DNA of 36,407 nucleotides from Candidatus Enterousia sp. (GTDB lineage Bacteria > Pseudomonadota > Alphaproteobacteria > Rs-D84): NCBI GenBank assembly GCA_045614725.1, contig JAZLDK010000071.1:1-36407 (forward strand), written 5' to 3'. Under the pieces are notes generated by a model. It worked only from the letters and a program-made list of their open reading frames with translations. It was not told the origin of the DNA and ran no database searches. This document shows positions 1,259 to 23,364 of the stretch, in pieces; the stretch's first letter is position 1; each line of letters opens with the position of its first letter. A program made the translations under genes and the position numbers.

Positions 1259-1708
1259 ATGGCGCGCAAGGAATTTGTTCGTTTAATGGAAGAAAATATT
1301 TGGACATTGGATAAAATCGCGGAAAAACTGCGCTTGGATCGTGTTGATACAACCGGATATCCGCGTCAACTGATGTCGATTCTGGTGCGTTTGCACAATG
1401 GTGGGCGCGCGCGCCTTAAAGACATTGCGCGTCGCGAACATGTTTCTGCGCCGAATCTGTGTGCGGCGTTTCGCAAACTGGAACACGACGGGTTGGTGGT
1501 GCGTACGATTGATGAAAACGATCGTCGCAACACTTGGTATGCGGTCAGTGAATCCGGCGCGGAATTGGCTAAGCGTGCAATGGATTTATTCCGTGAAGGT
1601 GTTGAAAAAGTATTTGCCGGTATTTCGCGTGCGGACGAAGCGCGCCTGACGGATGCGTTGCGTACAATGCACGATATTTTAAAGAATGTGGAGTTGAATA
1701 ATGATTAA
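1259..1708 (+). CDS. MarR-family transcriptional regulator
   Basis: 149 aa with a winged-HTH pattern (LKDIARREHVSAPNLCAAFRKLEHDGLVVRTIDENDRRNTWYAVSESG) typical of MarR. Its stop overlaps the start of the next gene (ATGATTAA), so it is the first gene of the efflux operon. Confidence 0.85.
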   Translation: MARKEFVRLMEENIWTLDKIAEKLRLDRVDTTGYPRQLMSILVRLHNGGRARLKDIARREHVSAPNLCAAFRKLEHDGLVVRTIDENDRRNTWYAVSESGAELAKRAMDLFREGVEKVFAGISRADEARLTDALRTMHDILKNVELNND

Positions 1709-3032
1709 GTCTAAATGGTTGTCCGGGGTTTTGGCGGCATGTGCGTCTGTTTTTGCGATGCCTTCCTATGCGTTGGATTTGTCGCTGGACGATGCGGTAT
1801 CAAAAATTGTTGCCCAGTCCCAGGATGTAAAGAAAGCGGATGCAAACATTAAAAAGGCCCAGGCTTCGCTTGATGCGGTTAACGCCAATCGTTGGTTTAA
1901 TATCGAAGCCACCGCATCGTATATGAATATGGTTAATGTGGAAAATCCATCTGAGTCCAAGACGATTGACCTGCCACCTGCATTGGGTGGTCTGATATCT
2001 GAATCATTAAAGGACACATCGATTAGTTTCGAGATGCCTGATAATATTTTCATGGCGGGCGTATCGATTACCCAGCCTATTTATACCTTTGGCAAAATTG
2101 GCAATGCGGTTAAATCTGTGCGTTCGGCAATCAAGATGGCGGATGCTTCGCATGAAATGACCCTGCGCGAGGTTCGCTATGCTGCCGCCGATTTGTATTG
2201 GACCGCCAAGATGACCGAAGAAATAGTTGTCCTGTCCAAGAATGATTTGAACAATGCGCGCGCTGCGAAAAAGAAACTGACCGCGGCCGGTCGTGCAAAC
2301 CGCAGCAATTTGCTGAAAATCGAATCTGATATTGCAACCAAAGAAATTAATTTGTCGGATGCGGAATTTAATCGCGATACAGCCCACAGAATGTTAAAAA
2401 TCATGGCCGGTATTGACATGGAAGAATCCTTGAGCCTGACGGATAATTTTCCAACCGCGTTCGCGGCGCTGGATGCGGGTGAATTAAATTCCACGCCTGA
2501 ATGGGACATCTTGAACGAACAGATTATTATGTACGAGCGTTCGGCCCGTTCCAAGCGCGCGGGTGCTTTTCCAACCTTGGCGGCGACCGCATCATATAAC
2601 TATTATTCCATGGCATCGGATGCGGGGCATATGTTTGATGAAAAGGGTTCTCAGTCTGCGAACTGGGGATTGGCATTACAGGTCCCTGTTTTCAGTGGTG
2701 GCCTAAATCGCGCCAATGCCACCATCGAGGCCATGAATGCCGAGGTCGCCCGTCAGGATTTAGACAAGTCTAAAAAAATAACAACCGAAAAATATGACAA
2801 CGCGATTAAGCAATATGACCATCTGCGTGGCAATTTAAAGTCGTTGGAAAATGCGCGCAATTTGGCGGCCAAGACCTATGATTTGTCCCAGAATCGTTTT
2901 GCTTCGGGGCAAACATCTGCGGTTGAATTGGCGGATGTTGCAGCGGGCCTGTATCAGTTGGATGTGGCGTTGCTGAACACTAAATACAGGGCGTTAATGT
3001 CTGCGGAAATGGTAAAGAAGTTAGGTGAATAA
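1701..3032 (+). CDS. TolC-family outer-membrane efflux protein (OMF)
   Basis: 443 aa with a signal peptide (...VFAMPSYA/LD). The N-terminus LSLDDAVSKIVAQSQDVKKADANIKKAQ is typical of the OEP/TolC family. There are two repeated halves, and the operon context is with an adaptor and an RND pump. Confidence 0.85.
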   Translation: MIKSKWLSGVLAACASVFAMPSYALDLSLDDAVSKIVAQSQDVKKADANIKKAQASLDAVNANRWFNIEATASYMNMVNVENPSESKTIDLPPALGGLISESLKDTSISFEMPDNIFMAGVSITQPIYTFGKIGNAVKSVRSAIKMADASHEMTLREVRYAAADLYWTAKMTEEIVVLSKNDLNNARAAKKKLTAAGRANRSNLLKIESDIATKEINLSDAEFNRDTAHRMLKIMAGIDMEESLSLTDNFPTAFAALDAGELNSTPEWDILNEQIIMYERSARSKRAGAFPTLAATASYNYYSMASDAGHMFDEKGSQSANWGLALQVPVFSGGLNRANATIEAMNAEVARQDLDKSKKITTEKYDNAIKQYDHLRGNLKSLENARNLAAKTYDLSQNRFASGQTSAVELADVAAGLYQLDVALLNTKYRALMSAEMVKKLGE

Positions 3033-3033
3033 A

Positions 3034-3633
3034 ATGGAAAAAATACAGCAAACAATTAAAACAAGAAAATTTAAGCACATTATGTTTTGTGCGTTGGCAC
3101 TGATAATTATCGGTTGGGTCGTGTTTCGCTTTGCGGCGGTTGCATCTGAAAATGCGCGCTATGTATTTAATGCATCACGTGTTGCGGCCGATGTTGGTGC
3201 GCCGGTTCAGGTCCTGGAATTATCGCGCTCAGACGGCGTGTTATATGAACCAATTGCGGTGCGGAATAATCGCGCCTATGTCGCCGGTGAAACCGTATCT
3301 AAATTCAAGGCTGGCCAGAAAGTAGGCAACGGTAAAATTGTTTCTGTATCGTCTGATTTGGATTTGGATACAGGCATGTTTGTAATTCGTACGCGTGGTG
3401 TCGCGGATGGTTTGCATTTTGCAGAATTTTCCGCACGTGGTCATTTTGTTCCTGTCTATGCGGTGCATAATGACACGGTTATGGTTGTGCACGACGGTGT
3501 GGCGCATGCGCGTTCCGTGACGGTTGCGCGTCAGGATTCAGACAACGCGTATATCACTTCGGGATTAAATGACGGCGACATTGTTATTTTGTCCAAGGTC
3601 GATGCTGGCAACAAAGTTCAAATCAAGAAATAA
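3034..3633 (+). CDS. Unusually short periplasmic adaptor (membrane-fusion protein)-like subunit (199 aa)
   Basis: It sits between the OMF and RND genes. It has one N-terminal TM helix (IMFCALALIIIGWVVFRF) followed by a beta-rich sequence ending ...VTVARQDSDNAYITSGLNDGDIVILSKVD, which resembles MFP beta-barrel and membrane-proximal regions. No long coiled-coil hairpin is visible. ATG 3034 (RBS AGGTGA) is preferred over the GTG at 3025. Confidence 0.6.
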   Translation: MEKIQQTIKTRKFKHIMFCALALIIIGWVVFRFAAVASENARYVFNASRVAADVGAPVQVLELSRSDGVLYEPIAVRNNRAYVAGETVSKFKAGQKVGNGKIVSVSSDLDLDTGMFVIRTRGVADGLHFAEFSARGHFVPVYAVHNDTVMVVHDGVAHARSVTVARQDSDNAYITSGLNDGDIVILSKVDAGNKVQIKK

Positions 3634-3651
3634 GGCAAGGGGGGATTGGCT

Positions 3652-6600
3652 ATGTTAAAGTTTTTTGTTCGTCGTCCAATTACGACAATTATGTTTGTTT
3701 TATTCTGGGTTGTGTTGGGATTTTATTCGTTCCCAAACATGAATGTGGAACGCACACCCTCGATTGATTTTCCTATGGTGACGGCGACCTTTATATATCC
3801 TGGTGCTGCGCCTGCGGAACTTGAATCCCAGGTAATTAAAAAAGCCGAAGACGCGATGTCTGAAGTTGCCGAATTAAAGTCCATTAAATCATATGTCTAT
3901 GAAAACAGTGGCATGGTTATGGCGGAATTTAATTTGGGTGTAAATGTTAATGATAAATCGACCGAAATTAAGACAAAACTTGATGCGTTGATGTCCGAAT
4001 TCCCCACGGACATGGAACAGCCAATTGTTGAAAAATTAAATCCTTTGCAGGAATCTGTGTTGGATATCGTTTTGCGTGGTGGTGATGCGCGCGAAATGGA
4101 AGAATACGTGGATAATGTTTTATCCAATAAAATCACCGCGATTAATGGTGTGGCCAGTGTATCTGTATTCGGTGGCCGTCAGCGCGCAATTCGCGTTCAG
4201 TTAAATCCTGACCAGATGGCGGCGCGTGGTGTGACCATTATGGATGTTGTTTCCGCCATGGGCAGTCATAACTTAAATGTCCCCGGGGGCAAGATAGAAA
4301 CAACCCAGAATTCATCCAATGTTCGTTTTATTGGTGAATTTGCATCTGTGGAAGAAATTGCCAATTTGCACATGACAACGGTCGAAGGTCAAAACTTTAA
4401 GTTGTCTGATATCGCGACTGTTTCTGATGCTGCGTTGGATATTGAAAACGGTGCGCGCTATAATGGTGAAGATGTTGTTATTGCATCTGTTGTAAAATCA
4501 TCGGACGGTAATGCAATCAAGATTTCAAACACAATTCGCGACCGCATGCCATCATTGACAGCTGATTTGAAATCGCGTTTTCCAAATGCCGAAATGATGA
4601 TAGTGGCGGATTCTTCGACCAGTATATCTGATGAAACAGATGGTACAATTAATGGTATTGTTCTGGGTGTTATATTTACTGTTTTGGTATTGTTGGCTTT
4701 TACACGCAATTGGCGTTCGACCATTATTGCGGGTGTTGTGATTCCTGCATCTTTGATTGCTGGTTTCTTCTTTATGGATTTTTCGAACTTTACGATTAAC
4801 GCGATGACATTGTTGGCATATTCGTCCGCGTTGGGTACATTGGTTTCGAATGCGATTATTCTGATTGAATCAGCATTACAGGAAATGCATGCCGGCAAAA
4901 CACCCGAAGATGCCGCCATTGACGGAACCAAAAAGGTCGCCGTATCTGTATTGGCGGGTGTTGGAACCAATGTTGTGGTGTTCTTGCCTTTGGCGTTTAT
5001 GAGTGGTATCGTCGGTCAATTCATGGTTCAGTTTGGTATGACGGTTGTGTATTTGACATTGCTGTCTTTGTTGTTCTCGTTCACACTGACACCTATGATG
5101 ATTGCCAAGATTTTGCGCCTGACCGGTGTTAAAAAGTCGCGCGCAAAACCGGTAAAAGTATCCACCACGCAACGCGAAGAATCATGGTTGCGTCGTTGGT
5201 TTAATTATCAGGTTGCGCATCCTTGGCGCGTGGTTGGCTTAATGGCGGCGGTGTTCTTGGTATCGACCCAGTTGATGAAATTTGTTGGAAATGAATTTCA
5301 GCCATCAACCGATGCAAACGAAATCACAATTACGGCGCGCGCACCTATGGGGGCGACATATGAAAAGTCCGCCGCAATTGTAAAGCAGATTGAACAGCGT
5401 TTATCGGCATTCCCAGAAATAAAATCAACAACTGTGAAAATTGGTGAACGCGGTCTGCAAAACATTACGGTTGTAATTGAATTGGTTGATGTTTCCGAAC
5501 GCAATATATCGGATAAAATGTTGACCCAGAAAATATTGCCAACACTGGCCGATATTTCCGATGTCGAAATTACCATCCGTGCTGGCGAGGCTCGTTCTGC
5601 CGGATTAACCGCGGACCTGGTGCTGAATGTATTTGGTCCAGATGATGCAAAACGCGAAGCATACGCGGCCCAGATTATTGACATGGCAAACCAGATACCA
5701 GAAGTTCAATCCGCCATTCGTGCCCAGCAGGTTCCGGCCCTTGAAACCCAGTTTGTTCCCGATCAGGAAAAAATGAATTTCTGGGGTGTGCAAAATTCGT
5801 ACGCGGGTGCGACATTGCGTGCCGCCCTGTACGGTAATGATGACTTTAAGTACAAAGAAGCCGGCGAAGAATATCCAATTTTGTTGGAATTTGCGCGCCC
5901 ATTCAAAAACGCATCTTTGTTTGATGTGGTCTATGTAAATTCACAAAAGGGTATGGTTCCACTGTCGTCACTTGGCGCGGTTAAACAGGTTCCTGCAACG
6001 CCTGATATTCGTCGCGAAGATAAAAATCGTTTGACCGAAGTTGATATCAATATTGGTAAATCAACCATGGGTGTTGTTCAGGCAAAAATCCAAAACGAAT
6101 TGGATAAAATGCAGTGGGAAAACGGATACTATGCCAAGTTTGGTGGTTCGTCTGAATACCAGGCCGAAGCTGCCACGGAAATCGGTCGTGCGTTCTTGCT
6201 GGCAACTGTTTTGACATATATGTTGTTGGCTGCGATTATGAATTCTTTGGCGCATCCACTTACGATTGCGACATCTATTTTGACCAGTTTTACAGGCGTG
6301 TTTGCGTTAATGTTCTTGTCGGGCGCGACAATGAATATTGGTGCGATGTTGGCGTTTGTTATGTTGGTTGGATTGGTGGTTAATAACAATATTTTGGTGT
6401 TGGAACCAACGATTAGCCGAATTCGTGATGGCGAATCCGCATCTGACGCACTGTGGACCGAATTGACCGATAAAAAGAACATGGTGCTGATGACATCAAT
6501 CGCGGTTATCGCGGGTATGGTGCCCCAGTTGTGGTCTATTGACGGTATGAAGGTCGCAATGGGTGCGGTTTTGATTGGTGGTATGTTCGCAAGTCTTGTG

Positions 6601-6675
6601 TTTACATTCACACTGACACCTGCGTTGTTCCTGTTAATGGAACGCGCGCGTCAAAAACTGAAACGCAAAAAATAA
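3652..6675 (+). CDS. RND-family efflux transporter permease (AcrB/AcrD/AcrF superfamily)
   Basis: 1007 aa. The N-terminus MLKFFVRRPITTIMF matches the AcrB-type start. The layout is 12 TM helices plus two large periplasmic loops, with a duplicated TM bundle. ATG 3652 (G-rich RBS at 3636-3644) is preferred over the TTG at 3646. Confidence 0.9.
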   Translation: MLKFFVRRPITTIMFVLFWVVLGFYSFPNMNVERTPSIDFPMVTATFIYPGAAPAELESQVIKKAEDAMSEVAELKSIKSYVYENSGMVMAEFNLGVNVNDKSTEIKTKLDALMSEFPTDMEQPIVEKLNPLQESVLDIVLRGGDAREMEEYVDNVLSNKITAINGVASVSVFGGRQRAIRVQLNPDQMAARGVTIMDVVSAMGSHNLNVPGGKIETTQNSSNVRFIGEFASVEEIANLHMTTVEGQNFKLSDIATVSDAALDIENGARYNGEDVVIASVVKSSDGNAIKISNTIRDRMPSLTADLKSRFPNAEMMIVADSSTSISDETDGTINGIVLGVIFTVLVLLAFTRNWRSTIIAGVVIPASLIAGFFFMDFSNFTINAMTLLAYSSALGTLVSNAIILIESALQEMHAGKTPEDAAIDGTKKVAVSVLAGVGTNVVVFLPLAFMSGIVGQFMVQFGMTVVYLTLLSLLFSFTLTPMMIAKILRLTGVKKSRAKPVKVSTTQREESWLRRWFNYQVAHPWRVVGLMAAVFLVSTQLMKFVGNEFQPSTDANEITITARAPMGATYEKSAAIVKQIEQRLSAFPEIKSTTVKIGERGLQNITVVIELVDVSERNISDKMLTQKILPTLADISDVEITIRAGEARSAGLTADLVLNVFGPDDAKREAYAAQIIDMANQIPEVQSAIRAQQVPALETQFVPDQEKMNFWGVQNSYAGATLRAALYGNDDFKYKEAGEEYPILLEFARPFKNASLFDVVYVNSQKGMVPLSSLGAVKQVPATPDIRREDKNRLTEVDINIGKSTMGVVQAKIQNELDKMQWENGYYAKFGGSSEYQAEAATEIGRAFLLATVLTYMLLAAIMNSLAHPLTIATSILTSFTGVFALMFLSGATMNIGAMLAFVMLVGLVVNNNILVLEPTISRIRDGESASDALWTELTDKKNMVLMTSIAVIAGMVPQLWSIDGMKVAMGAVLIGGMFASLVFTFTLTPALFLLMERARQKLKRKK

Positions 6676-8276: not shown

Positions 8277-9020
8277 ATGTTGTTCAAATTCAAATATCAT
8301 AAAAATTTAGCCCCGGACATATGGGAATCGCCAACGAAAATGAATCCATTGGTGGTTCATTCACTTAAAATGATAGCGGCTGAATTTGTAAATTACCTGT
8401 GCAATTTTGCGAAATTGCCGGTTAGTGTTGCTGATATTCAGGATGTTTTTGTTCATGGATCGATTGCTAATTATTATTGGGATAAATACAGTGATATAGA
8501 TTTGTGCATTGTTGCCGATTTATCAAAACTAAGAAACTATTTACATTCTTCTGATGACTATATTCTGTTTAAGGGGCTGTTAACATCGTGGTACAGGGTT
8601 TATGATATCAGTATTTTTGGACGCGGAATTGATTTGAAAATGATTGATATTCGGGATACAAATAAAACTCTTACTATGATTGTCGGACCTTCTTATTCCT
8701 TAAAAAAAGACCGATGGGAAAAGACGCCTGTTCGATTGACTAAGTCTGAATTACGCACTCAGTGTCGTATCGCGCGTATAAAATATCGTGCAATTATGCG
8801 TCAGTGTCGATATATGTTGCGACACAAAATGCCGTCTGAATATGTTGATGCCTATCTGGTTAATTTGCAAAAGGTTCGTTTGGCCAGCGCGACTTATCAG
8901 GATAATCATCCCGTCACATCCACGACCATGGCATTCAAGATGGTTCGCAATACTGGGACCTTTCGCAAATTGCGCAAGATGTCCAAGGGGCAGCGTTCTA
9001 AAAAATTCAGATTGGAATAA
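8277..9020 (+). CDS. Pol-beta-superfamily nucleotidyltransferase-fold protein with a basic C-terminal tail (247 aa)
   Basis: The motif VFVHGSIANYYWDKYSDIDLCIVAD is hG[GS]-X(9-11)-[DE]h[DE]h, here G-X11-D-X-D (nt 8457-8501), the minimal-NTase signature. It is followed by a helical Arg/Lys-rich region and the tail FRKLRKMSKGQRSKKFRLE. The gene is more AT-rich than the flanking core genes and has a poor RBS 14 nt after the upstream stop. Confidence 0.6.
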   Translation: MLFKFKYHKNLAPDIWESPTKMNPLVVHSLKMIAAEFVNYLCNFAKLPVSVADIQDVFVHGSIANYYWDKYSDIDLCIVADLSKLRNYLHSSDDYILFKGLLTSWYRVYDISIFGRGIDLKMIDIRDTNKTLTMIVGPSYSLKKDRWEKTPVRLTKSELRTQCRIARIKYRAIMRQCRYMLRHKMPSEYVDAYLVNLQKVRLASATYQDNHPVTSTTMAFKMVRNTGTFRKLRKMSKGQRSKKFRLE

Positions 9021-9022
9021 AA

Positions 9023-9337
9023 TTATTTCCCAAATATGAATGAATTATCGCGGCTGATTTCAATAATCACATCAATACTGTCATCATCGGGTGTTTTTTG
9101 ACGTTTTACTTTGCCGCATTTTTCACATTTGTGTGTGATTATAAATTTATCGCCGTCGGGCTGGGCGGCAATTGGTCGCATCATGCCACCGCATGTCGCC
9201 GCGCGGTCGCCGGGATTGTTGTCAACATGTCTTGACCAAAGACACACATGGCAATGATTGGTATATCCATTGCCATGTACAACTGCGCCACAATGGGCGC
9301 AGTTAAAATCTTCAACAGTCTTGGTGAACGATTTCAT
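9023..9337 (-). CDS. RNHCP-domain protein (zinc-ribbon-like, 104 aa)
   Basis: The sequence FNCAHCGAVVHGNGYTNHCHVCLWSRHVD...ATCGGMMRPI...HKCEKCG matches the RNHCP domain pattern (C-x2-C ... [RT]NHC-x2-CLWS-x-H ... C-x2-C). Its start overlaps the gapR stop by 1 nt (TAATG). Confidence 0.75.
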   Translation of the reverse strand: MKSFTKTVEDFNCAHCGAVVHGNGYTNHCHVCLWSRHVDNNPGDRAATCGGMMRPIAAQPDGDKFIITHKCEKCGKVKRQKTPDDDSIDVIIEISRDNSFIFGK

Positions 9338-9585
9338 TATATCCCCAATGCGTTGCGATACATCTGGGTTAATTCGTCCGCTTCGTCCAATTCATCTGGG
9401 TCCAACTTGCGCAGACGTATCATCTGGCGAATGTATTTTGGGTCAAATCCCGCAGATTTTGCCTCGCTATAAATTTCCTTGATATCGGCGGCGATTGCGG
9501 CCGTATCTTCGTTTAATTTTTCGATGCGTTCAATTATGCTTAACAATTGTTGATTGTCAATTGCACCATGATTTGCTTGTTTCAT
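9337..9585 (-). CDS. gapR: GapR/DUF2312-family AT-rich-DNA-binding nucleoid-associated protein (82 aa)
   Basis: The sequence QLLSIIERIEKLNEDTAAIAADIKEIYSEAKSAGFDPKYIRQMIRLRKLD closely parallels Caulobacter GapR (...[49 protein letters not shown]). An RBS (AAGGGGA) is present. Confidence 0.85.
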   Translation of the reverse strand: MKQANHGAIDNQQLLSIIERIEKLNEDTAAIAADIKEIYSEAKSAGFDPKYIRQMIRLRKLDPDELDEADELTQMYRNALGI

Positions 9586-9664
9586 TCTGTTTTCCCCTTG
9601 TTAAATTGCTAAGAATATGATATATCATAAAACGAAAAAATCAAGAAAAACAGGAAGGGAACAT

Positions 9665-11035
9665 ATGAATAAATATACAAAAATTACAGCATCAATCGGC
9701 CCAAAGTGCGAAGATAAAGAAACCCTGACACGCATGATTCGCGCGGGTGTAAATGTTTGTCGCCTTAATTTTAGTCACGACACGGGCGCGACCCAGGGTG
9801 CAAAAATTGATATGATTCGGGAAATATCGACCGAATTAAATACCCCTGTGGCAATAATGATTGATTTGCAGGGGCCAAAGCATCGTATTGGTAATTTTGC
9901 AACCGAAGAAAAATATCCCCTGTTAATCGGCCAGAAGTTTACATTTGATACATTGGATGTCCCGGGTGATTCCACGCGTGTCCAGTTGCCTGATTCGGAT
10001 GTACTGGCATCTTTGAATGTTGGCGACAGAATTTTATTAAACGACGGCAAAATAGAAATGCGCGTTGAATCCGTGCAACCGTCCAAGGTTGATGCCATCG
10101 TTGTGCGTGGTGATGAAATTTGGTCGCGCCGCGGATTTAATTTGCCCGATACAGAAATTGCAACATCTGTCTTGACGGACAAGGACAGGGCGGACCTGGA
10201 ATATGCAATTACCAAGAAACCAGATTGGGTTGCTATATCGTTTGTTCAAAAGCCTGAAGACATTGCCGAGGTTCGTGATTTTATCACCGCACGCACCGCG
10301 CACCCAATAAAAATTATTGCGAAAATTGAACGTCCAAACGCTGTTGAACGTATTTCGGATATCGCCGCCGCGGCCGATGGTATAATGATTGCGCGTGGCG
10401 ACCTGGCGGTCGAGGTTCCTTATGCCGAAGTACCCGCTATATCGCGTCACATTATTCGTGAATGTCGTAAAATGAACAAACCTGTAATTGTTGCAACACA
10501 AATGCTGGGGTCAATGGTGAACAGTGAATTCCCAACCCGTGCGGAAATTACCGATGTTGCGACCGCATCCTATTTGCGTGCGGATTCAACCATGACATCC
10601 GAAGAAACAACCATTGGTATTAATCCAGTAAATGCGATTGAAACAATGGCGAATATATTGCGCCACGCAGACTGTGATGCAATTGCGAATCCATTTGATT
10701 GGTCGCGTGTTGAAAATGTTCCAGAAAATGATTGGTCGCGTTCGGTTGCTTCTATGGCGTACCTTAATCGCGCGTCTGCAATTGTTGTGTTTGCACGCGA
10801 TACAATTGCCACCACCCAGATTTCTTGCCGCAAACCAGACATTCCTGTAATTGCGATATGTAATGAATCTGCGATTGCAAATCAGTTGTGTTTGGCGCGT
10901 GGTGTTTTCCCGATTTATGATAACGAATTATTCGGCATGCGCGATGCGTTTAATGCGGCGCGCCGATTTAATATCAATATGGGAAAATTGGTAATTGTGG
11001 ATGAAGAAAAAATAAGTCTTCGTACATTAGATTAA
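9665..11035 (+). CDS. pyk: Pyruvate kinase
   Basis: The N-terminus KITASIGPKCEDKETLTRMIRAGVNVCRLNFSH, together with IMIARGDLAVEVPYAEVP and VIVATQMLGSM, are canonical pyruvate kinase motifs. ATG 9665 with RBS GGAAGGGA is preferred over the ORF-track start at 9617. Confidence 0.9.
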   Translation: MNKYTKITASIGPKCEDKETLTRMIRAGVNVCRLNFSHDTGATQGAKIDMIREISTELNTPVAIMIDLQGPKHRIGNFATEEKYPLLIGQKFTFDTLDVPGDSTRVQLPDSDVLASLNVGDRILLNDGKIEMRVESVQPSKVDAIVVRGDEIWSRRGFNLPDTEIATSVLTDKDRADLEYAITKKPDWVAISFVQKPEDIAEVRDFITARTAHPIKIIAKIERPNAVERISDIAAAADGIMIARGDLAVEVPYAEVPAISRHIIRECRKMNKPVIVATQMLGSMVNSEFPTRAEITDVATASYLRADSTMTSEETTIGINPVNAIETMANILRHADCDAIANPFDWSRVENVPENDWSRSVASMAYLNRASAIVVFARDTIATTQISCRKPDIPVIAICNESAIANQLCLARGVFPIYDNELFGMRDAFNAARRFNINMGKLVIVDEEKISLRTLD

Positions 11036-11103: not shown

Positions 11104-12264
11104 ATGGGAAGAATGTTGGCATTTTTTTTACTATCGATGATTTGCCTGCCACTGTATGCGGCCCAATACCGTGCTGCGCTGGTTGCGGATATGGATACTG
11201 GTCGCGTGCTGTACCAAGAAAAAGCAACTGAATTAAATTATCCCGCCAGTTTGACCAAGATAATGACATTGTATCTGACCTTTGATGCGTTGGATCATGG
11301 GCGATTGGCATTGGATGATTATTTAATTGTGTCACAATCGGCCGCCAATGCTGAACCCGTGAAACTGGGGCTGGCGGCGGGTGCAAAAATTCGTGTCGAA
11401 GATGCAATTAAGGCCGTCGCAGTTTACAGTGCGAATGATGTCGCGCGTGTCTTGGCGGAAAATCTTAAAGGTGGCCAGGAAGAATCCTTTGCGGATTTGA
11501 TGACGCGTGTCGCGCGTGAAATTGGTTTAACAAATACGAATTTCGAGAACTCATCTGGTCTGCCGAACGATGATCATATGTCAACCGCGCGTGATATTGC
11601 TTTGTTGTCCATGGCGGTGTATAAACATTTTCCTCAGTATTGGCATTTCTTTGGGATTAAGTCTTGGACCTATAACGGTAAAACATATACTAATGGGAAC
11701 CGACTGCTAAGTTCGTATAATGGCTGTGATGGTATGAAGACCGGATATACCAAAAAATCGAAATATTCATTGGTCGCAACCGCGCACAGACAGGGGCGGC
11801 ATTTAATTTCGGTTGTCTTGGGTGCGGAAAACAAGGATGTGCGTGCAAATGTTGCGGCGCAGATGTTGACCCGTGGATTTACAATGTTGAATAATGGTGA
11901 TACGCCGATTGCGAAAACAACCTATACCGCGCCGGTTGTGAATTCTTCGGACACGGTCGAAGCGCCAACAACTTTTGCGGGCGCATATAATGCGGCGACC
12001 GCGGCCGCAACACCAAAATACAACAACGCGGTCGCGGCGACACCGTCCGGTGGCGCGGGGGTTCAGTTTGGGGCCTTTTCGTCCCAATCCGCCGCCAACG
12101 CCCAGGTTCAAAATGTAAAAAACAAACTGGGGGTTAATGCGACGATTGAACCAAACGGTTCCGGTATGTATCGTGTGCGCGTACATGGGTTATCGGAATC
12201 CGCGGCCCAGGGACTTAAAAAATCCGCCACGGCAAACGGTATTGACAGTTATGTTTTTCATTAG
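11104..12264 (+). CDS. D-alanyl-D-alanine carboxypeptidase (PBP5/6-like, peptidase S11) with a C-terminal SPOR domain
   Basis: It has a signal peptide. The active-site motifs are SxxK (ASLTKIM), SxN (YSAND) and KTG (MKTGYT). An Ala/Thr/Asn-rich linker leads to a SPOR-like end (GVQFGAFSSQSAANAQVQNVKNKL...MYRVRVHGLSESAAQGLKKSATANGIDSYVF). Confidence 0.85.
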   Translation: MGRMLAFFLLSMICLPLYAAQYRAALVADMDTGRVLYQEKATELNYPASLTKIMTLYLTFDALDHGRLALDDYLIVSQSAANAEPVKLGLAAGAKIRVEDAIKAVAVYSANDVARVLAENLKGGQEESFADLMTRVAREIGLTNTNFENSSGLPNDDHMSTARDIALLSMAVYKHFPQYWHFFGIKSWTYNGKTYTNGNRLLSSYNGCDGMKTGYTKKSKYSLVATAHRQGRHLISVVLGAENKDVRANVAAQMLTRGFTMLNNGDTPIAKTTYTAPVVNSSDTVEAPTTFAGAYNAATAAATPKYNNAVAATPSGGAGVQFGAFSSQSAANAQVQNVKNKLGVNATIEPNGSGMYRVRVHGLSESAAQGLKKSATANGIDSYVFH

Positions 12265-17644: not shown

Positions 17645-17675
17645 ATCCGCTGAATTATATCAGCGGATTTTTTTA
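17645..17675. terminator. Bidirectional terminator shared by yidC (+) and the convergent small ORF (-)
   Basis: An 8-bp stem (ATCCGCTG / CAGCGGAT) is flanked by an A run on the 5' side and a T run on the 3' side. The stop codon of the minus-strand ORF lies within the hairpin. Confidence 0.8.
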
Positions 17676-17995
17676 TACAACCCAAACGGTGTTTGTATTC
17701 GCACATCACGTATGCCGATTGCGCGCTTGGTCATTTCCACACAGGTGCGCGCCCCACGCGCCGTAAAGTCATGTGCCAGATTGCGCGGCAAATATACAAA
17801 CCGCCACCCATATTGACCAAGTATTTTTATATCGCGCATACTAAGTGGAATTTTTTGAATATTTCCCCGCCGCACAAATTGCAGCATTATCATATTATTG
17901 TTGCAGACGATTATCGGCGCGACATGTTTATATTTTCTGCAAAATAATTTTGGGATAAACCTGCTGGTTTTTCGTGAAAAGGCAATGATAATCAT
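17660..17995 (-). CDS. Hypothetical basic protein (111 aa from ATG 17995; the longer 145-aa form would start at 18097)
   Basis: ATG 17995 is preceded by an RBS (AAAGGA, 7-nt spacing). The longer form would overlap the upstream gene and read through a GC hairpin. I recognise no family. A His (KYKHVAPII) upstream of a Cys (ARTCVEMTKRAIGI) is loosely reminiscent of permuted papain/NlpC-P60-like hydrolases, but that is speculative. Confidence 0.45.
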   Translation of the reverse strand: MIIIAFSRKTSRFIPKLFCRKYKHVAPIIVCNNNMIMLQFVRRGNIQKIPLSMRDIKILGQYGWRFVYLPRNLAHDFTARGARTCVEMTKRAIGIRDVRIQTPFGLYKKIR

Positions 17996-18053: not shown

Positions 18054-18401
18054 CTAATCAATCCATCCATGTTTTTTTGCTGCGATATTAATAACATTCA
18101 TTGCATTGTTCCATTGTGCGGCGGCGCGGTTTTCACTCCATATATGCTGATGGGGTGCGCGTCTTTTATCTCCAAATTTTTTCATAATTTCTAATTGTTC
18201 GTCTGTTAATTTTCCGGCCAGATAAAGTTTAGTAATCATTGTTTCCACATCCACCAGTTCGCATGGTCGCCGTGTTGGGTTTGCTCGCATTTGTGTAAAA
18301 CTGTTGCGCACAGATTTAGAATATAAAAACCAGAACCACAATTGTTCTGCGCTTTGAAATTTTTCTGATGCGTTTTCTGTGATGGTATTAAGTTGTGTCA
18401 T
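18054..18401 (-). CDS. Hypothetical small helical protein (115 aa)
   Basis: It has a strong RBS (AAGGAGA, 9 nt before the ATG at 18401). The sequence looks helical and soluble (…SAEQLWFWFLYSK…RRPCELVDVETMITKLYLAGKLTDEQLEIMKKFG…). I recognise no family. Confidence 0.55.
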   Translation of the reverse strand: MTQLNTITENASEKFQSAEQLWFWFLYSKSVRNSFTQMRANPTRRPCELVDVETMITKLYLAGKLTDEQLEIMKKFGDKRRAPHQHIWSENRAAAQWNNAMNVINIAAKKHGWID

Positions 18402-18429: not shown

Positions 18430-18449
18430 TATATATATATATATATATA
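18430..18449. repeat. (TA)10 dinucleotide microsatellite
   Basis: Perfect TATATATATATATATATATA, 29-48 nt upstream of the minus-strand ATG at 18401. Confidence 0.95.
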
Positions 18450-18596
18450 ACAAGAAAAGATTCCTGTGAATCATTACAACCGATGGTTGAAGTTCGAATC
18501 GAAAATCCGATTCAAAATGCGAATTTTTGTTTCGCGTTACGAATCGAAAAATTTATCCATAATCAATTTTTTTCATTTTTTATCCTTAAATAAAAA

Positions 18597-18613
18597 ACGC
18601 GCCATTGGCGCGT
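18597..18613 (-). terminator. Second of two tandem terminators after virB10
   Basis: An ACGCGCC / GGCGCGT stem (loop ATTG) is followed by a T run on the minus strand. Confidence 0.65.
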
Positions 18614-18641
18614 AAAAAATATTTTACATATCTTGATAAAT

Positions 18642-18663
18642 AAACCCGCCATTGGGCGGGTTT
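18642..18663 (-). terminator. Rho-independent terminator immediately after the virB10 stop
   Basis: A 9-bp stem (AAACCCGCC / GGCGGGTTT, loop ATTG) lies 3 nt from the stop codon and is followed by TTTATTTAT on the minus strand. Confidence 0.8.
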
Positions 18664-18665
18664 AT

Positions 18666-21056
18666 TTATATCAGTGGCGGGAAACAATCGCCCCCGGTTG
18701 TCGGGCAACAGTTAAACCCATCTTCACCCATATCGGTATAAACTTCGCCGGCACAGCACCCAAATTGATCGGGTGGATTACCATCTTCACAGGTTAAAAT
18801 GGCCTCTTGTGTGCCGCTGCTGGACGAAGAAGCATACGGATTTTTGACTGTTCCGTCAGCATTATACTGAATCCCCAGTATTTCTTCGTTAAATTGCTGT
18901 TCGTTCATATCATTAATTTTCTGGTCGTATTGTGCCTTTTGGTCGGCCTTATAGGCATCGTATTGCAATTCCTTTTTGGATTGATAGTTTAATGAATCGC
19001 ACCACAATTTAAGTGTCGCGTACGAATACCCACCACATGGATTTAATTCACCGTTCTCGCCTTTTGCGCATGCGGGCTTCACACGCCACAGACCGTCAAC
19101 ATCCTCGCAGAACTGTTCGTTGCCCGCCGCCATCCACGAACGCGCCTGACCAATCCAAGAGTCATCATCTGCCGGGGTTAGTTCACTGTTCTTAACATCC
19201 TTACCCCAATCGCGACGTTTGTCGTTTACTGTGTTGTTGTCGCCTTCTGAAAGTGTGCACTTGTCATTTCCGGTACATGCGACCTGTAAATCAACCGGTG
19301 AATAAACCGTTATGCGCGTTCCGGCCGGAATTGTGAATGGCGGAACCGTGTTATCCATCATATCAACCAACAGTTTCTGTGCCACGCTGTTCCATGCGGT
19401 GATAATTTCATTCTTGGCCAATTCGGACGAGCGGATTTTACCGCTTTGTACGACCGTGTTATTATCCAAATCAATTTGATTTACAAATGCATCCGCCACC
19501 GGATTAATCAGGTTAATCGTCGCCGGCACAAACGCGGTCAGCATCGGCATAACAAATTGTTCCAAATAATCGGTACTGCCACGACCGGGCACACCCACAC
19601 GTCCCTGCGCATCGGCCGAGAATGGGTCTTGTTCTTTGTCAAAATTAAACTCCACACCATTTGGCAAAATAAATTGATACCACTTAATTTCCATGCGACC
19701 AATTGCCTTGTAAGGTCCGGGGATTTTGCCGGTCACATATCCCATCAATAATGTACCCGCCGGAAGAATAACGGTACGGCCATTATCGGAATATACATTC
19801 CTGTCAACCGTTGCACGCACGGGCAGGGACCCCTCGCTTTTCAGCATTTCTATATCCGCACGAACATCCGATACGATTGTTGCAGGAATCGGTTTAAATT
19901 GTCTAAGCACAAAACTGCGATCATATGGTTGTGTTGAAACCACGGCTGTGCCGGTCGTGCCGTATATCACATCCTTGACCTTGGCCGGTTTTACGATGCC
20001 GCCGTTTGATTCAGGGGCAATACTGCTGCCGCGGCTGTTGCTTGGTGTTTCGTTTTGGCGCGCACGATTAACCGATTTTGTTCCTTCTTCTGTGCGCTGT
20101 GCCCATTCAGGTAATCTGCCGCCGGATATTGCAACATATCCGATATGTTCTGCATCACTGCCAATTTTACGGCCACGATTATTAATATCCATAATTAAAC
20201 CAGAATCTGGATTATATATACCCGTCGGATCGTCGCTGCAATCCGTATCAGAAAACGGATGAAAATAGTATGCGCCACCCTTTGGTTTAATCCAGCCACT
20301 TTGATTCCCCGCCAGATTGTATCCCGGGAACGCAAATTCAGAACAAGGTTCGCTTAAGTCAGCGGGCATGCGCTGTGGTTTTTCAAATGGGTCGCCGGCC
20401 GCAATATCATCTACTGCCCTAACAACGGGTTGTGGTTCCGGTTCAGGCTCAGGTTCAGGCTCAGGTTCAGGCTCTGGTTCAGGCTCTGGCTCAGGCTCTG
20501 GTTCAGGCTTTGGCTCTGGGATAACGACAGGTGTTGGTTCGTCGTTGATTTCGGTTGTATATGCACCAATTGCCACAGGAATTGTTGAAATTTCCGACAT
20601 TTCCGGCGCGGCCTGTTCTGCATACCATTCGATTTCAATGGGAATATCGATTGTGTCCATTTCAATCGTTGGCGCAAATTTTACAATTATATCACAACTA
20701 AGATCTTCATTTATAAAGCCGGCACTTTCGCAAGTATTTGTGACTTCAAGGCCATCTACCTCGGGCTTTGATACGGCCTTGATACTGACCGAAGAATTTG
20801 TGGTCACGATAATTTTTTGTTCTTTGGTTTGTCCAACAAGTACCTCGGGCCAATTAATTTCGTCCGGTGTTATTTTTATATTGACCGCTGAATCCTCGCT
20901 TGTTTCTGGCGGCAATTCGACATTTGTCTTTTTTTGCCCCATCAACAGTGTCAGCAAGATAATTACAACAACAAACGCGACACCCAGCAACAACCATCGC
21001 ATATGCTTTGGCATATTATTCAACAGTTCTGATATTTGTTGTTTCAGTTTATTCAT
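18666..21056 (-). CDS. virB10: VirB10/TrbI-family type IV secretion core protein, greatly expanded (796 aa)
   Basis: It has a short cytoplasmic N-terminus, one TM helix (WLLLGVAFVVVIILLTLLM) and a Pro-rich tract (PEPK(PE)12PQP). The TrbI/VirB10 beta-barrel core reads ...PYDRSFVLRQFKPIPATIVSDV..LPVRATVDRNVYSDNGRTVILPAGTLLMGYV..RMEIKWYQFILPNGVEF..ADAQGRVGVPG..FTIPAGTRITVYSPVDL. Extra N-terminal, middle and C-terminal segments are present. ATG 21056 with RBS AAGGTGGGG is preferred over 21077. Confidence 0.85.
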   Translation of the reverse strand: MNKLKQQISELLNNMPKHMRWLLLGVAFVVVIILLTLLMGQKKTNVELPPETSEDSAVNIKITPDEINWPEVLVGQTKEQKIIVTTNSSVSIKAVSKPEVDGLEVTNTCESAGFINEDLSCDIIVKFAPTIEMDTIDIPIEIEWYAEQAAPEMSEISTIPVAIGAYTTEINDEPTPVVIPEPKPEPEPEPEPEPEPEPEPEPEPEPEPQPVVRAVDDIAAGDPFEKPQRMPADLSEPCSEFAFPGYNLAGNQSGWIKPKGGAYYFHPFSDTDCSDDPTGIYNPDSGLIMDINNRGRKIGSDAEHIGYVAISGGRLPEWAQRTEEGTKSVNRARQNETPSNSRGSSIAPESNGGIVKPAKVKDVIYGTTGTAVVSTQPYDRSFVLRQFKPIPATIVSDVRADIEMLKSEGSLPVRATVDRNVYSDNGRTVILPAGTLLMGYVTGKIPGPYKAIGRMEIKWYQFILPNGVEFNFDKEQDPFSADAQGRVGVPGRGSTDYLEQFVMPMLTAFVPATINLINPVADAFVNQIDLDNNTVVQSGKIRSSELAKNEIITAWNSVAQKLLVDMMDNTVPPFTIPAGTRITVYSPVDLQVACTGNDKCTLSEGDNNTVNDKRRDWGKDVKNSELTPADDDSWIGQARSWMAAGNEQFCEDVDGLWRVKPACAKGENGELNPCGGYSYATLKLWCDSLNYQSKKELQYDAYKADQKAQYDQKINDMNEQQFNEEILGIQYNADGTVKNPYASSSSSGTQEAILTCEDGNPPDQFGCCAGEVYTDMGEDGFNCCPTTGGDCFPPLI
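20433..20519 (-). repeat. In-frame hexanucleotide tandem repeat (GGYTCW)n encoding PEPK(PE)12P in VirB10
   Basis: On the + strand the sequence reads GGTTCAGGCTCAGGTTCAGGCTCA... for about 14 units. Translated on the minus strand it gives alternating Pro-Glu. Confidence 0.95.
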
Positions 21057-21098
21057 CCCACGACCCCACCTTAACAAATTGCGTTCTAAATTATGTAA

Positions 21099-22628
21099 TT
21101 ATTGCATTCTTACAACATTGCAACTGGTGCCACTGAACTTTAACAGTTTGTCGCACAAAGTCTGTGCCGTATCGATATCAGTCAATGGCCCAATGCGCAA
21201 ACGATACAGTTGTGCGGTGGATGAAGATGCACCCAAATCACCAACGCCTTGGTCATCAACCGCAAAGAATACTTTGTCTTCATATGGTGTCAGCAATCCC
21301 ACCCCATTATCGCCACTGAACTTGGCGCGCAATTTATTCCAGTAATCTTCCAGTGCAGATACCGTTGTATCGGAACGCAGTTCCACCGCCACACCCAACT
21401 GGTTATTGGTAATCAATGGGATGTTCGTCTGGGGCAAATATGCGCCCGCTGTATTACGCTGTGTTGGCAACATATTTGCAACACTGCCATTGCCCGTCTG
21501 TGGTGCGGTGTATCCCGCCGGCATATAATACCCCGCCCCTGTGTTTGGATTAACGGTTGCGGTATTGCCCATAAACACAGGTGTGCCCGTGTAATTTGTT
21601 CCCATGCTCATTGCGGCCATATCGGCGGTATAGGCAATGTTGTTCAATGATTGGCCCGACAACATGCTTTGTGCTACATTCGCCTCGGCCAGGGCCATAA
21701 CAGATGCAGTGTCTGCAATCAAGAATGGCTTCTCGCGCTTTTTGATACAAACAATTCGTTGTCCGCTGCGCAGAACCATATCGCCAACCGCCTCTACAAT
21801 CAACAGGCGACCATCTTCGCCGTCTGTGCGGAAACCGACCGGAGACTCGCCCCCTTCAACCAGCAGCGACACAACCGGTCTTTGTGTCATGGCGATAACT
21901 TTGTCGCCAAAGTCGATATATGTAAAGATTCTGTCGCGCCATACGCGTTCAGGTGCGATAACATAATCGTCCGGATTTGGAACAAAAATATCCAAATCAA
22001 AACGGAATTCCGATGGGTCAATCTTCATAGATTTAATCCAACCATAATCTTCACCGTCAACCCCAACTGTGTTGGTTGCCGCGGCTGGTGCCTTTTTGAA
22101 TATAGAACCCGAAGCACCCGTTGTTGGCTGGGCACCCATCATAGGCAATGCGCCATTACCATCCAGAACAATATCGACCTGGGAATATGTAATTTCGCTT
22201 GAATTGGATGGTTCCGCCCGCAGATAGAAAACATAACGATTGCCGGATGCGCCCGTCACAATCATATTTGTATCCGAACCCTGATTGCTTGCTTTGGGCG
22301 ATATGAACATTGTTCGTTCGCCCTGAGTTGCATCAATATCAAACTGACCTGTGTCACCAACCTGGGCATCAACAATCTGTTCGCCGTTTGGCAGTGTCAC
22401 CATTGTAATCATGCCGTTGCGTAATTTGATTGGCAAAACCGCGCCCGTTGACCAAGACAGTTGTGCGTATCCAGGCTTGGAACTGCCCATTGCCATGTTT
22501 GCGGTTGGATTGTCCCATGCCTCTTGTATGCCATACGAGGTCCCAGCCTCGGCATATGCGGACACACTAAGTGTTGCCGCCAAACACAGTGTCAGCATAT
22601 TAAACTTAAATAATTTTGCCATTGTCAT
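21099..22628 (-). CDS. virB9: VirB9/TrbG/CagX-family type IV secretion core protein with a C-terminal extension (509 aa)
   Basis: Signal peptide MTMAKLFKFNMLTLCLAATLSVSAYA. The N-terminal VirB9 domain (LPIKLRNGMITMVTLPNGEQIVDAQVGDTGQFDI...MFISPKA...NMIVTGASGNRYVFYLRA) and the C-terminal VirB9 domain (APERVWRDRIFTYIDFGD...VSLLVEGGESPVGFRTDGEDGRLLIVEAVGDMVLRSGQRIVCIKK) align by eye with A. tumefaciens VirB9. About 200 further residues follow. Confidence 0.85.
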   Translation of the reverse strand: MTMAKLFKFNMLTLCLAATLSVSAYAEAGTSYGIQEAWDNPTANMAMGSSKPGYAQLSWSTGAVLPIKLRNGMITMVTLPNGEQIVDAQVGDTGQFDIDATQGERTMFISPKASNQGSDTNMIVTGASGNRYVFYLRAEPSNSSEITYSQVDIVLDGNGALPMMGAQPTTGASGSIFKKAPAAATNTVGVDGEDYGWIKSMKIDPSEFRFDLDIFVPNPDDYVIAPERVWRDRIFTYIDFGDKVIAMTQRPVVSLLVEGGESPVGFRTDGEDGRLLIVEAVGDMVLRSGQRIVCIKKREKPFLIADTASVMALAEANVAQSMLSGQSLNNIAYTADMAAMSMGTNYTGTPVFMGNTATVNPNTGAGYYMPAGYTAPQTGNGSVANMLPTQRNTAGAYLPQTNIPLITNNQLGVAVELRSDTTVSALEDYWNKLRAKFSGDNGVGLLTPYEDKVFFAVDDQGVGDLGASSSTAQLYRLRIGPLTDIDTAQTLCDKLLKFSGTSCNVVRMQ

Positions 22629-22650
22629 ACCAATCCTTCCGTTCTTTATT

Positions 22651-23364
22651 TTATTTGTTTATCACAAAACTATCCAACGGGTCAAGCCCGCCATCGGTAA
22701 TTTTGTATTCTGACACGCGCAACCCCAGTGGGTTTTCGATGCGGTCTGTCCATTTTATCTTTTCGATGTCACCCGATACCAATCTTAATGCAATTGTATA
22801 ATCTTTTGTAGACAAAGGTCCAGCATTATTTGCGCAATTATACCTAAGTTTTATCTGGTACAATTGTTCTTGTTTAAGATACTTTATTGGTTCCGAATTA
22901 ATAAAGTCAACCGTGCATGACAGCGCCAGGTTCTGAACACCATGTCGCCTGATTGAATTTACGGTGCTTGTGCCGGAAAAAGTCTTGTACACATCATCCG
23001 TTGACCAGATTTTTACCAGCCCATCCTTGGCGTTCCACTTTTTGTTCATAATTTTTGATTCAGGTAATATTTCGTTTCTGGCACGAATGTATTCGCGTAT
23101 AAATGCGCGAACATATCGGTCGGCATATGCATCGTCGGTTGGCATTTCGATGATTCGTACCTCTACATTATCTCGCAATTGCGCGGTCAGAAAAAATATC
23201 TGGGGTCTGTTCAGAGGGAACATGTTTTTCAATGTTATTCCCAACGCAAACAACACGACCACCGACATGGCTAAAACAAACACCAGTAATCTTGACAGTA
23301 AAATCGGCGGTTCTATGCGGTTTTTCACGACTTCCTCTCTCTTAATTAAAATGATTGTAGACAA
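22651..23364 (-). CDS. virB8: VirB8-family type IV secretion protein (237 aa, TTG start)
   Basis: A short cytoplasmic N-terminus and one TM helix (LLVFVLAMSVVVLFALGI) precede a periplasmic NTF2-like domain with the family hallmarks FIREYIRARNE and the C-terminal NPLGLRVSEYKI (compare NPLGFQVTSYR in VirB8). The only available start is the TTG at 23364, preceded by GGGGG. Confidence 0.8.
   Translation of the reverse strand: MSTIILIKREEVVKNRIEPPILLSRLLVFVLAMSVVVLFALGITLKNMFPLNRPQIFFLTAQLRDNVEVRIIEMPTDDAYADRYVRAFIREYIRARNEILPESKIMNKKWNAKDGLVKIWSTDDVYKTFSGTSTVNSIRRHGVQNLALSCTVDFINSEPIKYLKQEQLYQIKLRYNCANNAGPLSTKDYTIALRLVSGDIEKIKWTDRIENPLGLRVSEYKITDGGLDPLDSFVINK

Follow-up and report, generated by a model that had tools for sequence, protein, structure and literature searches.

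A stand-alone virB8-virB9-virB10 module in the core genome of Candidatus Enterousia, a candidate envelope scaffold of a dispersed type IV secretion system

Introduction

What is the role of three type IV secretion system (T4SS) genes, virB8, virB9, and virB10, that stand by themselves in a reduced bacterial chromosome? The question arises from a 36,407-nt chromosomal segment (hereafter, the window, meaning this whole stretch of DNA) of a Candidatus Enterousia-like alphaproteobacterium of the order Rs-D84, the content of which was established from an open reading frame (ORF) listing and family scans. Rs-D84/Enterousia genomes are 0.75–1.0 Mb in size and lack amino-acid, nucleotide, and lipid biosynthesis altogether; glycolysis is incomplete, respiration and standard uptake transporters are missing, an obligate partner-dependent life has been proposed, and the genome survey leaves many membrane proteins without explanation (PMC12306168). 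In the Enterousia and Rs-D84 literature that we examined, no T4SS is discussed; the one Rs-D84 publication found to name a secretion system is a camel-rumen survey, and no publication linking RF32 to a T4SS was found. Our analysis favors, with a probability of roughly 0.6, the reading that virB8-9-10 is the envelope scaffold of a dispersed P-type T4SS, resembling the Rickettsiales rvh system and belonging to the Rs-D84 core genome.

Results

A compact unit of three VirB families

The three genes lie on the minus strand. virB8 (22651–23328) encodes a bitopic inner-membrane protein of 225 aa when read from GTG 23328, which is preceded by the ribosome-binding site (RBS) GAGAGGAAG. The mechanical ORF extends to TTG 23364, and the GTG is probably the true start because relatives (223–228 aa) begin at the equivalent V-x-x-R-[VI]-EPP. 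virB9 (21099–22628) encodes a secreted protein of 509 aa. virB10 (18666–21056) encodes 796 aa from ATG 21056; its mechanical ORF begins at TTG 21077 and is 803 aa long, and the ATG is the probable start because every homologue begins at the equivalent of M8 (residue numbers for parts of VirB10 follow the 803-aa ORF throughout). The genes are separated by 22 nt and 42 nt, with the RBSs GGAAGGA and AGGTGGGG, the latter being that of virB10. Directly after the virB10 stop codon, two tandem intrinsic-terminator-like hairpins were found (18587–18663, minus strand), one at ~18636–18663 read from the sequence (aaacccgcc-caat-ggcgggttt, then a T-run) and one at ~18587–18613 from a terminator scan (acgcgcc-aat-ggcgcgt, then TTTTTT). 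virB8-9-10 is thus compactly organized, with RBSs and terminators in place, and the tight spacing of the genes, their individual RBSs, and the paired terminators that the first-pass annotation of this DNA had described were all recovered.

The same annotation had assigned the products to VirB8, VirB9, and VirB10, and these assignments held in a check with profile hidden Markov models. All three proteins exceed the Pfam gathering thresholds: VirB8 (PF04335) with 37.8 bits against 23.2, CagX (PF03524) for VirB9 with 84.4 bits against 34.2 (20 out of 20 family members also match), and TrbI (PF03743) for VirB10 with 63.5 bits against 35. The existence of such genes is already known, since NCBI labels some homologues "TrbI/VirB10 family protein".

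Conservation across Enterousia-type genomes

Relatives were sought in one genome per GTDB species. They occur in 271 such species genomes, and the loci of 80 of them were examined. A database search returned >890 VirB10 clusters; the 120 listed homologues (~730–850 aa, 47–91% identical) all come from uncultured Alphaproteobacteria, and the alignment spans the entire protein in all except a few of them. The 80 loci belong to metagenome-assembled genomes from the guts of yak, deer, buffalo, sheep, goat, horse, chicken, mouse, and human, labeled Candidatus Enterousia, Alphaproteobacteria, or "Rickettsiales". They include a closed circular chromosome of 958,618 bp (OZ007020.1), in which the module lies at about 29–32 kb.

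Gene order is the same in all 80 loci (nusG, secE / virB8, virB9, virB10, orf115, orf111 / yidC), with complete synteny in 57 and the remainder cut by contig ends or showing small downstream differences. Wherever contig ends spare them, virB9 and virB10 are full length in these 80 species, and four seeming truncations of virB8 proved to be artefacts of the ORF routine. Compared to a relative with 94–99% identity (L095), the ratio of nonsynonymous to synonymous substitution rates (dN/dS) is 0.03 for virB8, 0.13 for virB9, and 0.30 for virB10 (yidC: 0.08). Across 86 loci, the median identity to the window in the best high-scoring segment pair is 77% for VirB9, 50% for VirB10, and 47% for VirB8 (LspA: 68%, KefB: 67%, YidC: 63%), so that VirB9 is conserved above YidC. 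GC content is ~44% across the whole window, with no compositional break at the virB8-9-10 block. Because synteny is fixed, the ORFs are intact, and dN/dS ranges from 0.03 to 0.30, decay and a recent mobile-element origin are excluded; judged from its sequence, the module is a vertically inherited core-genome locus under purifying selection, neither a mobile element nor a relic.

Relatives outside the genus

Outside relatives were drawn from an exhaustive TrbI-domain search of 50%-identity representatives, which gave a graded series in which several contexts were inspected. Three loci (L088, L090, and L093) contain the stand-alone arrangement virB8, virB9 (with SPOR), and virB10, followed by a gene for a small secreted protein of 116–125 aa, and their housekeeping surroundings are all different. 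L088 has a GC content of 55% and is labeled "Rickettsiales bacterium", and L090 has 34% GC and a gene for a 57-aa lipoprotein upstream of the module. Two further loci (L091 and L092) are more complete, with the order virB8, a gene for a 58–62-aa lipoprotein, virB8, virB9 (with SPOR), virB10, and a T2SSE/VirB11 ATPase gene. Their VirB9 and that of the window can be aligned from end to end, SPOR-like domain included, and the VirB10 proteins of these two loci are giants of 2287 aa (L091, 10001–16864) and 1413 aa (L092, 6373–14242). L092 comes from an alphaproteobacterium that is common in the gut and whose contigs reach 1.9 Mb; it represents a different order-level lineage, because its YidC is 33% identical to that of the window.

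As far as virB11, L091 and L092 have the gene order of the rvh cluster in Rickettsiales, and the Enterousia module is therefore a pared-down member of an rvh-like family that extends through uncultured gut Alphaproteobacteria. The first-pass annotation had offered two possibilities, a piece of a dispersed machine of the rvh kind or a repurposed core complex; the former gains a concrete rvh link from this gene order and from the full-length VirB9 alignment, and the latter is weighed below as the less probable of the two.

Several features of these outside loci are recorded here for their own sake. The giant VirB10 proteins of L091 and L092 are made up of long repeats and show faint Pfam matches to Bflower/RHS, L092 encodes a separate 1208-aa repeat protein between virB9 and virB10, and about 45 representatives of the giant type occur among the top 150 matches. 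The small secreted protein encoded after virB10 (L088: 8278–8628, L090: 10882–11247, L093: 12267–12644; faint match to PF27226) belongs to a family of 41 clusters in 5.8 billion proteins, with a distant member in an unrelated marine context, and may be an additional subunit of the ring or the periplasm. The protein is missing from the 86 Enterousia loci, and none of the 41 clusters is Enterousia-like. In L088, dprA, which encodes a DNA-processing protein of natural transformation, adjoins the module on the opposite strand (8629–9741), either by chance or as a hint of DNA uptake. Another locus (L094, 5980–9873) has three tandem VirB8 paralogues (277, 231, and 211 aa), a virB9 split into ORFs of 104 aa and 352 aa by a frameshift or assembly error, and some ten co-oriented upstream ORFs without a family match.

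VirB9 and its SPOR-like domain

VirB9 consists of a signal peptide (aa 1–26, not of the lipoprotein type), the VirB9/CagX domains (aa 56–297), a low-complexity linker, and a SPOR-like domain within ~210 additional C-terminal residues. Profile matches link its N-terminal domains to two solved structures, Xanthomonas VirB9 (6gyb) and R388 TrwF (7o3j). The most conserved part of the protein is aa 201–325 (21654–22028, minus strand), comprising the C-terminal beta-sandwich and the next helix, where per-column conservation reaches 0.97–1.00 among 78 species-level genomes and identity is still ~60–80% in the distant lineages L088–L093.

The C-terminal domain (aa ~411–509; 21102–21398, minus strand) is probably a peptidoglycan-binding SPOR domain. 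The Pfam SPOR match of the window protein is borderline (PF05036: 21.4 bits against a gathering threshold of 21), and matches at E ≤ 0.01 were obtained in 20 out of 20 VirB9 family members, outgroups included (best E 1.6e-6). Two other approaches did not corroborate it: an hhalign comparison of the VirB9 family with the SPOR domain protein DacSPOR of the window aligned the signal peptides alone, and a model of the VirB9 C-terminus predicted from one sequence alone (predicted local distance difference test score, pLDDT, of 57) gave no meaningful Foldseek matches. SPOR domains bind peptide-free glycan strands of peptidoglycan. Like FtsN, DamX, RlpA, and DacSPOR, VirB9 has its SPOR domain (~75 aa) at the C-terminus; unlike in those proteins, the domain is fused to a ring subunit of a secretion system. 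As far as the sequences tell, this VirB9-SPOR fusion is a trait of the entire rvh-like family in gut Alphaproteobacteria, and no publication naming both VirB9 and a SPOR domain was found.

DacSPOR itself, a D-Ala-D-Ala carboxypeptidase (Peptidase_S11; 11104–12264, plus strand), has a clear C-terminal SPOR domain (38.6 bits), lies 9 kb from the VirB9-SPOR domain, and is kept in syntenic loci.

Architecture of VirB10

VirB10 carries ~380 additional N-terminal and ~200 additional C-terminal residues. These extensions and that of VirB9 are real and conserved among relatives, bearing out the earlier description of the proteins as structurally atypical. At the N-terminus, the cytoplasmic tail and transmembrane helix (aa 8–46; 20940–21056, minus strand) are conserved: the first 25 residues score 0.74 over 81 sequences, and P23, W28, and the hydrophobic stretch 28–46 are invariant. 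A periplasmic Ig-fold domain of the ASH/PapD-like type follows (aa 64–175; 20553–20888, minus strand), as predicted from AlphaFold and Foldseek. The full-length AlphaFold model, built on a 12-sequence alignment, has a mean pLDDT of 49, and the Ig-like domain alone is usable, since values of ~81–91 are confined to aa 64–175. Foldseek matched this domain to ASH/PapD-like and SPD-2 domains (E 1e-5 to 1e-4); VirB10 also has a weak NCBIfam choice-of-anchor D match, and PF15780 is precomputed on one homologue (P0117).

A Pro-Glu repeat linker read from the sequence (aa ~179–219; 20421–20543, minus strand) is gapped in the alignment and differs in length between species; matches of VirB10 to TonB, PARP, ClfB, and DedD arise from the composition of this repeat and were rejected. 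The middle domain (aa 245–330; 20088–20345, minus strand; CS[DE]FAFPGY...GWIKP...YNPD[NS]G) has many invariant columns, with a conservation of 0.74–0.78, and no match in a Pfam scan. The TrbI beta-barrel domain (19278–19925, minus strand; Pfam TrbI at aa 397–593) has two long predicted helices that are antenna-like (aa ~503–574). Profile matches to CagY (9vgf, 8cb2) and ComB10 (2bhv) make these its closest solved relatives. Conservation of the barrel ranges from 0.72 to 0.97 and peaks on the predicted helix-loop-helix, the helices being those of a low-confidence model. In known systems, the outer-membrane antenna of VirB10 occupies the same place.

At the C-terminus, a Cys-rich extension (aa 601–803; 18669–19277, minus strand) ends in the invariant GCC.GE..TDMG..GFNCCP..GGDCFPP. 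Its last 20 residues score 0.90, with invariant cysteines (CC...CC...C). No family match was found for it in Pfam or NCBIfam, and it is missing from the VirB10 of L088 (673 aa).

Search for the remaining T4SS parts

The first-pass annotation had stated that nothing else in the 36 kb belongs to a T4SS, and both Pfam scans and tblastn were negative in agreement with it. No T4SS family was found in Pfam scans of those window ORFs not already recognizable as housekeeping genes, and no relaxase turned up in these general scans, a search with relaxase reference sequences not being part of the work. Using VirB1–6, VirB11, and VirD4 of a Rhizobium plasmid in tblastn, the window and flanks gave matches to B8, B9, and B10 alone. 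Two VirB11 proteins from the closest VirB11-bearing lineages gave no match in the window and flanks. A database search with the L092 VirB11 recovered solely its own lineage at ≥88% identity and is hence uninformative on Enterousia. In none of the 80 species is there an ATPase gene less than 10 kb away from the module, a result that concerns local flanks, not whole genomes, and tblastn revealed no relatives of VirB1 and VirB5 in 1.65 Mb around the module (86 loci).

Discussion

Comparison with known systems

Among known systems, rvh is alike in being chromosomal, vertically inherited, P-type, and found in reduced alphaproteobacterial genomes; it is dispersed over several loci, with virB4 away from virB8-10, as would also hold for the machine proposed here. 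Its cluster order (virB8, virB7, virB8, virB9, virB10, virB11, virD4) is not that of the window, which has virB8-virB9-virB10 alone: a single virB8, no virB7-like gene, and neither virB11 nor virD4 after virB10. In addition, the window VirB9 differs from that of rvh by its SPOR-like domain, and VirB10 by its ASH/Ig domain, middle domain, and Cys-rich tail.

The canonical VirB7/9/10 cores (A. tumefaciens, pKM101 TraN/O/F, R388 TrwH/F/E, Xanthomonas) share the three Pfam families, gene order, and predicted topology with the module. However, the window VirB10 is ~26–28% identical to plasmid VirB10, the lengths of VirB9 and VirB10 are roughly double the usual ones, the genes do not form a contiguous set, and no mobile element carries the locus. 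In the Cag system (CagX/CagY), the VirB10 homologue is likewise enlarged N-terminal to the TrbI barrel, and CagY is the best solved-structure match, whereas its extra domains are unrelated and the extension in the window protein is modest (~380 aa) and accompanied by a C-terminal Cys-rich domain.

Proposed organization and points against it

In the organization that we propose, VirB9 and the C-terminal barrel of VirB10 would form the outer-membrane core ring, as their family membership suggests, and the two long VirB10 helices may line the outer-membrane pore, to judge from the conserved helix-loop-helix of the low-confidence model. The N-terminal helix of VirB10 would anchor the ring in the inner membrane, where VirB8 would nucleate the inner-membrane part in keeping with the known role of its family, and the conserved 20-residue cytoplasmic tail of VirB10 may contact a cytoplasmic or inner-membrane partner. 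The SPOR-like domain of VirB9 may fix the ring to peptidoglycan, replacing the anchoring role of the VirB7 lipoprotein. By analogy with rvh, VirB4, VirB3, VirB6, and perhaps VirB11, VirD4, and VirB2 would be encoded elsewhere on the ~0.9-Mb chromosome. The retention of VirB8, which is not known to act other than as a T4SS assembly factor, and the conservation of the VirB10 tail (0.74) both suggest an inner-membrane or cytoplasmic partner. Given the lifestyle proposed for the lineage, the machine may serve contact-dependent exchange with a partner cell (PMC12306168).

Several results weigh against this proposal. The NCBIfam equivalog cut-offs are far from reached by VirB8 (17.3 against 188 bits), VirB9 (TIGR02781: 56 against 218 bits), and VirB10 (equivalog domain NF038091: 56.8 against 220 bits); since the Pfam thresholds are passed and these are not, the proteins are members of their families, yet not close orthologues of the textbook proteins. 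Relatives of VirB2, VirB3, VirB4, VirB6, VirB11, and VirD4 were not seen in the 1.65 Mb of sequence that flanks the module at 86 loci, and no small ORF with a lipobox, as expected for a VirB7-like lipoprotein, occurs in the intergenic sequence around the window module. In four lineages of differing genomic context (Enterousia, L088, L090, and L093), the module has no ATPase gene beside it. Secretion systems go unmentioned in the lone genome study of the Rs-D84 lineage (PMC12306168), a silence that is weak evidence because the annotation was metabolism-centered. Finally, the placement of the remaining T4SS parts elsewhere is argued by analogy and not from observation.

Alternative explanations

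Some of the same results can be read as evidence for an autonomous complex without an ATPase, that is, a static double-membrane conduit or envelope tether left behind when the shrinking genome shed the genes for motor and pilus; we regard this as unlikely, although it is the most probable of the alternatives. The tether would connect the inner membrane, peptidoglycan (via SPOR), and the outer membrane, with the Ig-like and Cys-rich domains adding functions. An absence of ATPase and other T4SS genes within 10 kb in 80 species and in three further lineages is what such a complex predicts, and virB11, adjacent in L091 and L092, is absent beside the window module. Relocation occurs as exactly the virB8-9-10 unit, which is compatible with an autonomous complex and equally with the separation of virB8-10 from virB3-4-6 in a dispersed rvh system. 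VirB7/9/10 rings self-assemble without other subunits in heterologous expression, which also counts in its favor, as do the gain of peptidoglycan-binding and disulfide-rich domains and a housekeeping-level conservation (97–100% in VirB9 aa 201–325, and VirB9 above YidC) that is unusual for a host-interaction system. The genome survey, moreover, reports no secretion system and many unexplained membrane proteins (PMC12306168). However, the search for ATPase genes covered local flanks, not whole genomes, and a retained VirB8 and a conserved cytoplasmic VirB10 tail are hard to explain without partners. Non-adjacency of virB4 is also the rule in dispersed rvh systems. The prior for this alternative is low because we know of no T4SS-derived machine that lacks VirB4. 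Should Enterousia and its relatives have neither VirB4, VirB11, nor VirD4, which we consider improbable, the module would be an essential conduit or tether across both membranes, anchored to peptidoglycan, for exchange between these bacteria, poor in transporters and biosynthesis, and a partner cell, and it would be the first known T4SS derivative to work without an ATPase.

Less probable still is a DNA-uptake T4SS like ComB of Helicobacter pylori, with VirB4 and without VirB11 and VirD4, for which environmental DNA would perhaps be mainly a nucleotide source. In H. pylori, the B8-B9-B10 genes lie in one operon and the B2-B3-B4 set in another, and the ComB system (comB6-comB10 operon) lacks VirB11 and VirD4. 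The local layout of the window module is compatible with this, the B8, B9, and B10 genes lying apart from any B4 ATPase gene and by themselves, without B11 and D4, as in the comB6-10 operon. It differs in that no ComB6 or ComB7 stands beside it, and its nearest fuller relatives carry virB11. ComB10 is the second-best NCBIfam match of the window VirB10, and its structure (2bhv) is among the few solved ones matched, but the score of 46 bits is far under the 300-bit equivalog cut-off and also below the VirB10 score. The lineage cannot make nucleotides (PMC12306168), which would fit DNA uptake. The position of dprA next to the module in L088 would fit as well, but it is seen in one lineage only and may be due to chance. 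Neither comB4 and comEC nor any further competence gene was seen, a statement that does not extend to whole genomes.

That the three genes are a decaying T4SS remnant or were once part of a conjugative element that had integrated, the outcome that would have cost the first-pass annotation its case, is suggested only by their isolation and by two small phage-like ORFs downstream, and it is highly improbable, as the ORFs are intact in 80 out of 80 species, dN/dS is 0.03–0.30, VirB9 is conserved above YidC, the genes keep their place between secE and yidC throughout the genus, GC content is like that of the surroundings, and family scans of window ORFs brought up neither an integrase or relaxase nor a repeat boundary.

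Downstream and neighboring genes

Beyond the virB10 terminators, two small minus-strand genes follow. orf115 (18054–18401) encodes a cytoplasmic-looking protein of 115 aa, has its own RBS, and occurs in 83 of 86 loci (median identity 67%); it is 100% identical in a close relative, against 94% identity for the VirB10 of the same relative. The orf115 promoter region, between the terminators and the RBS, includes a (TA)n run of ~20 nt (18430–18450). orf111 (17660–17995; mechanical ORF of 145 aa, reaching 18097) occurs in 77 of 86 loci, is called as 111 aa in two relatives (L095 and L096), shows a dN/dS of 0.19, and had no match in a family scan. The outside relatives of orf115 are found on a linear phage-plasmid-like replicon of Rhodovastum (a hypothetical protein in the early region) and an Azospirillum chromid, with a weak PHROG match, and orf115 and orf111 may have been domesticated from phages. 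A role of orf115 as the fourth component of the machine was considered and rejected: it has no signal peptide, two terminators precede it, and its only relatives are of the phage type. Nor is it homologous to the small secreted protein encoded after virB10 in L088, L090, and L093. It is thus probably not part of the machine.

Elsewhere in the window, Pfam scans identified plus-strand genes for MarR, OEP, AcrB, HAD, pyruvate kinase, KsgA, RecR, KefB, LspA, and YidC. On the other side of the virB8-9-10 block lie tRNA-Trp, secE, nusG, rplKAJL, and rpoBC (plus strand), where the genes from secE to rpoC were named after their syntenic counterparts in L001 and L004, as annotated with Pfam, and not from scans of the window ORFs. 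A MarR regulator, a TolC-like OEP, and a 1009-aa AcrB-type pump of the resistance-nodulation-division family (1259–6675, plus strand) are kept despite a genome of <1 Mb, and a 202-aa ORF between OEP and AcrB, the expected place of the membrane-fusion protein, has no family match. Genes for an RNHCP-domain protein and GapR (9023–9585, minus strand; family scan) adjoin the pyruvate kinase gene, and the pairing of pyruvate kinase with GapR also occurs in the distant L093 (3461–5264). The window encodes a full-length pyruvate kinase, and the pathway figure of the mSphere survey includes this enzyme.

Significance

Rs-D84/Enterousia bacteria have almost no biosynthesis and no recognizable nutrient transporters, and how they acquire nutrients is a puzzle (PMC12306168). 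They are widespread in the guts of ruminants, horses, chickens, mice, and humans. A 4.7-kb module that takes up 0.5% of such a genome, is intact in all species examined, and in parts equals ribosomal proteins in its conservation stands out as a prime candidate for mediating the contact with a partner cell. Its core-genome status and housekeeping-level conservation across a reduced-genome order appear to be undescribed, as do the stand-alone three-gene unit in four lineages, the VirB9-SPOR fusion, and the accretions of VirB10. For T4SS biology, the module offers a natural minimal B8/B9/B10 unit, and the VirB9-SPOR fusion in place of VirB7 would anchor the core ring to peptidoglycan in a manner that appears not to have been described. 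If it were true that no VirB4 exists, the module would be the first ATPase-independent descendant of a T4SS.

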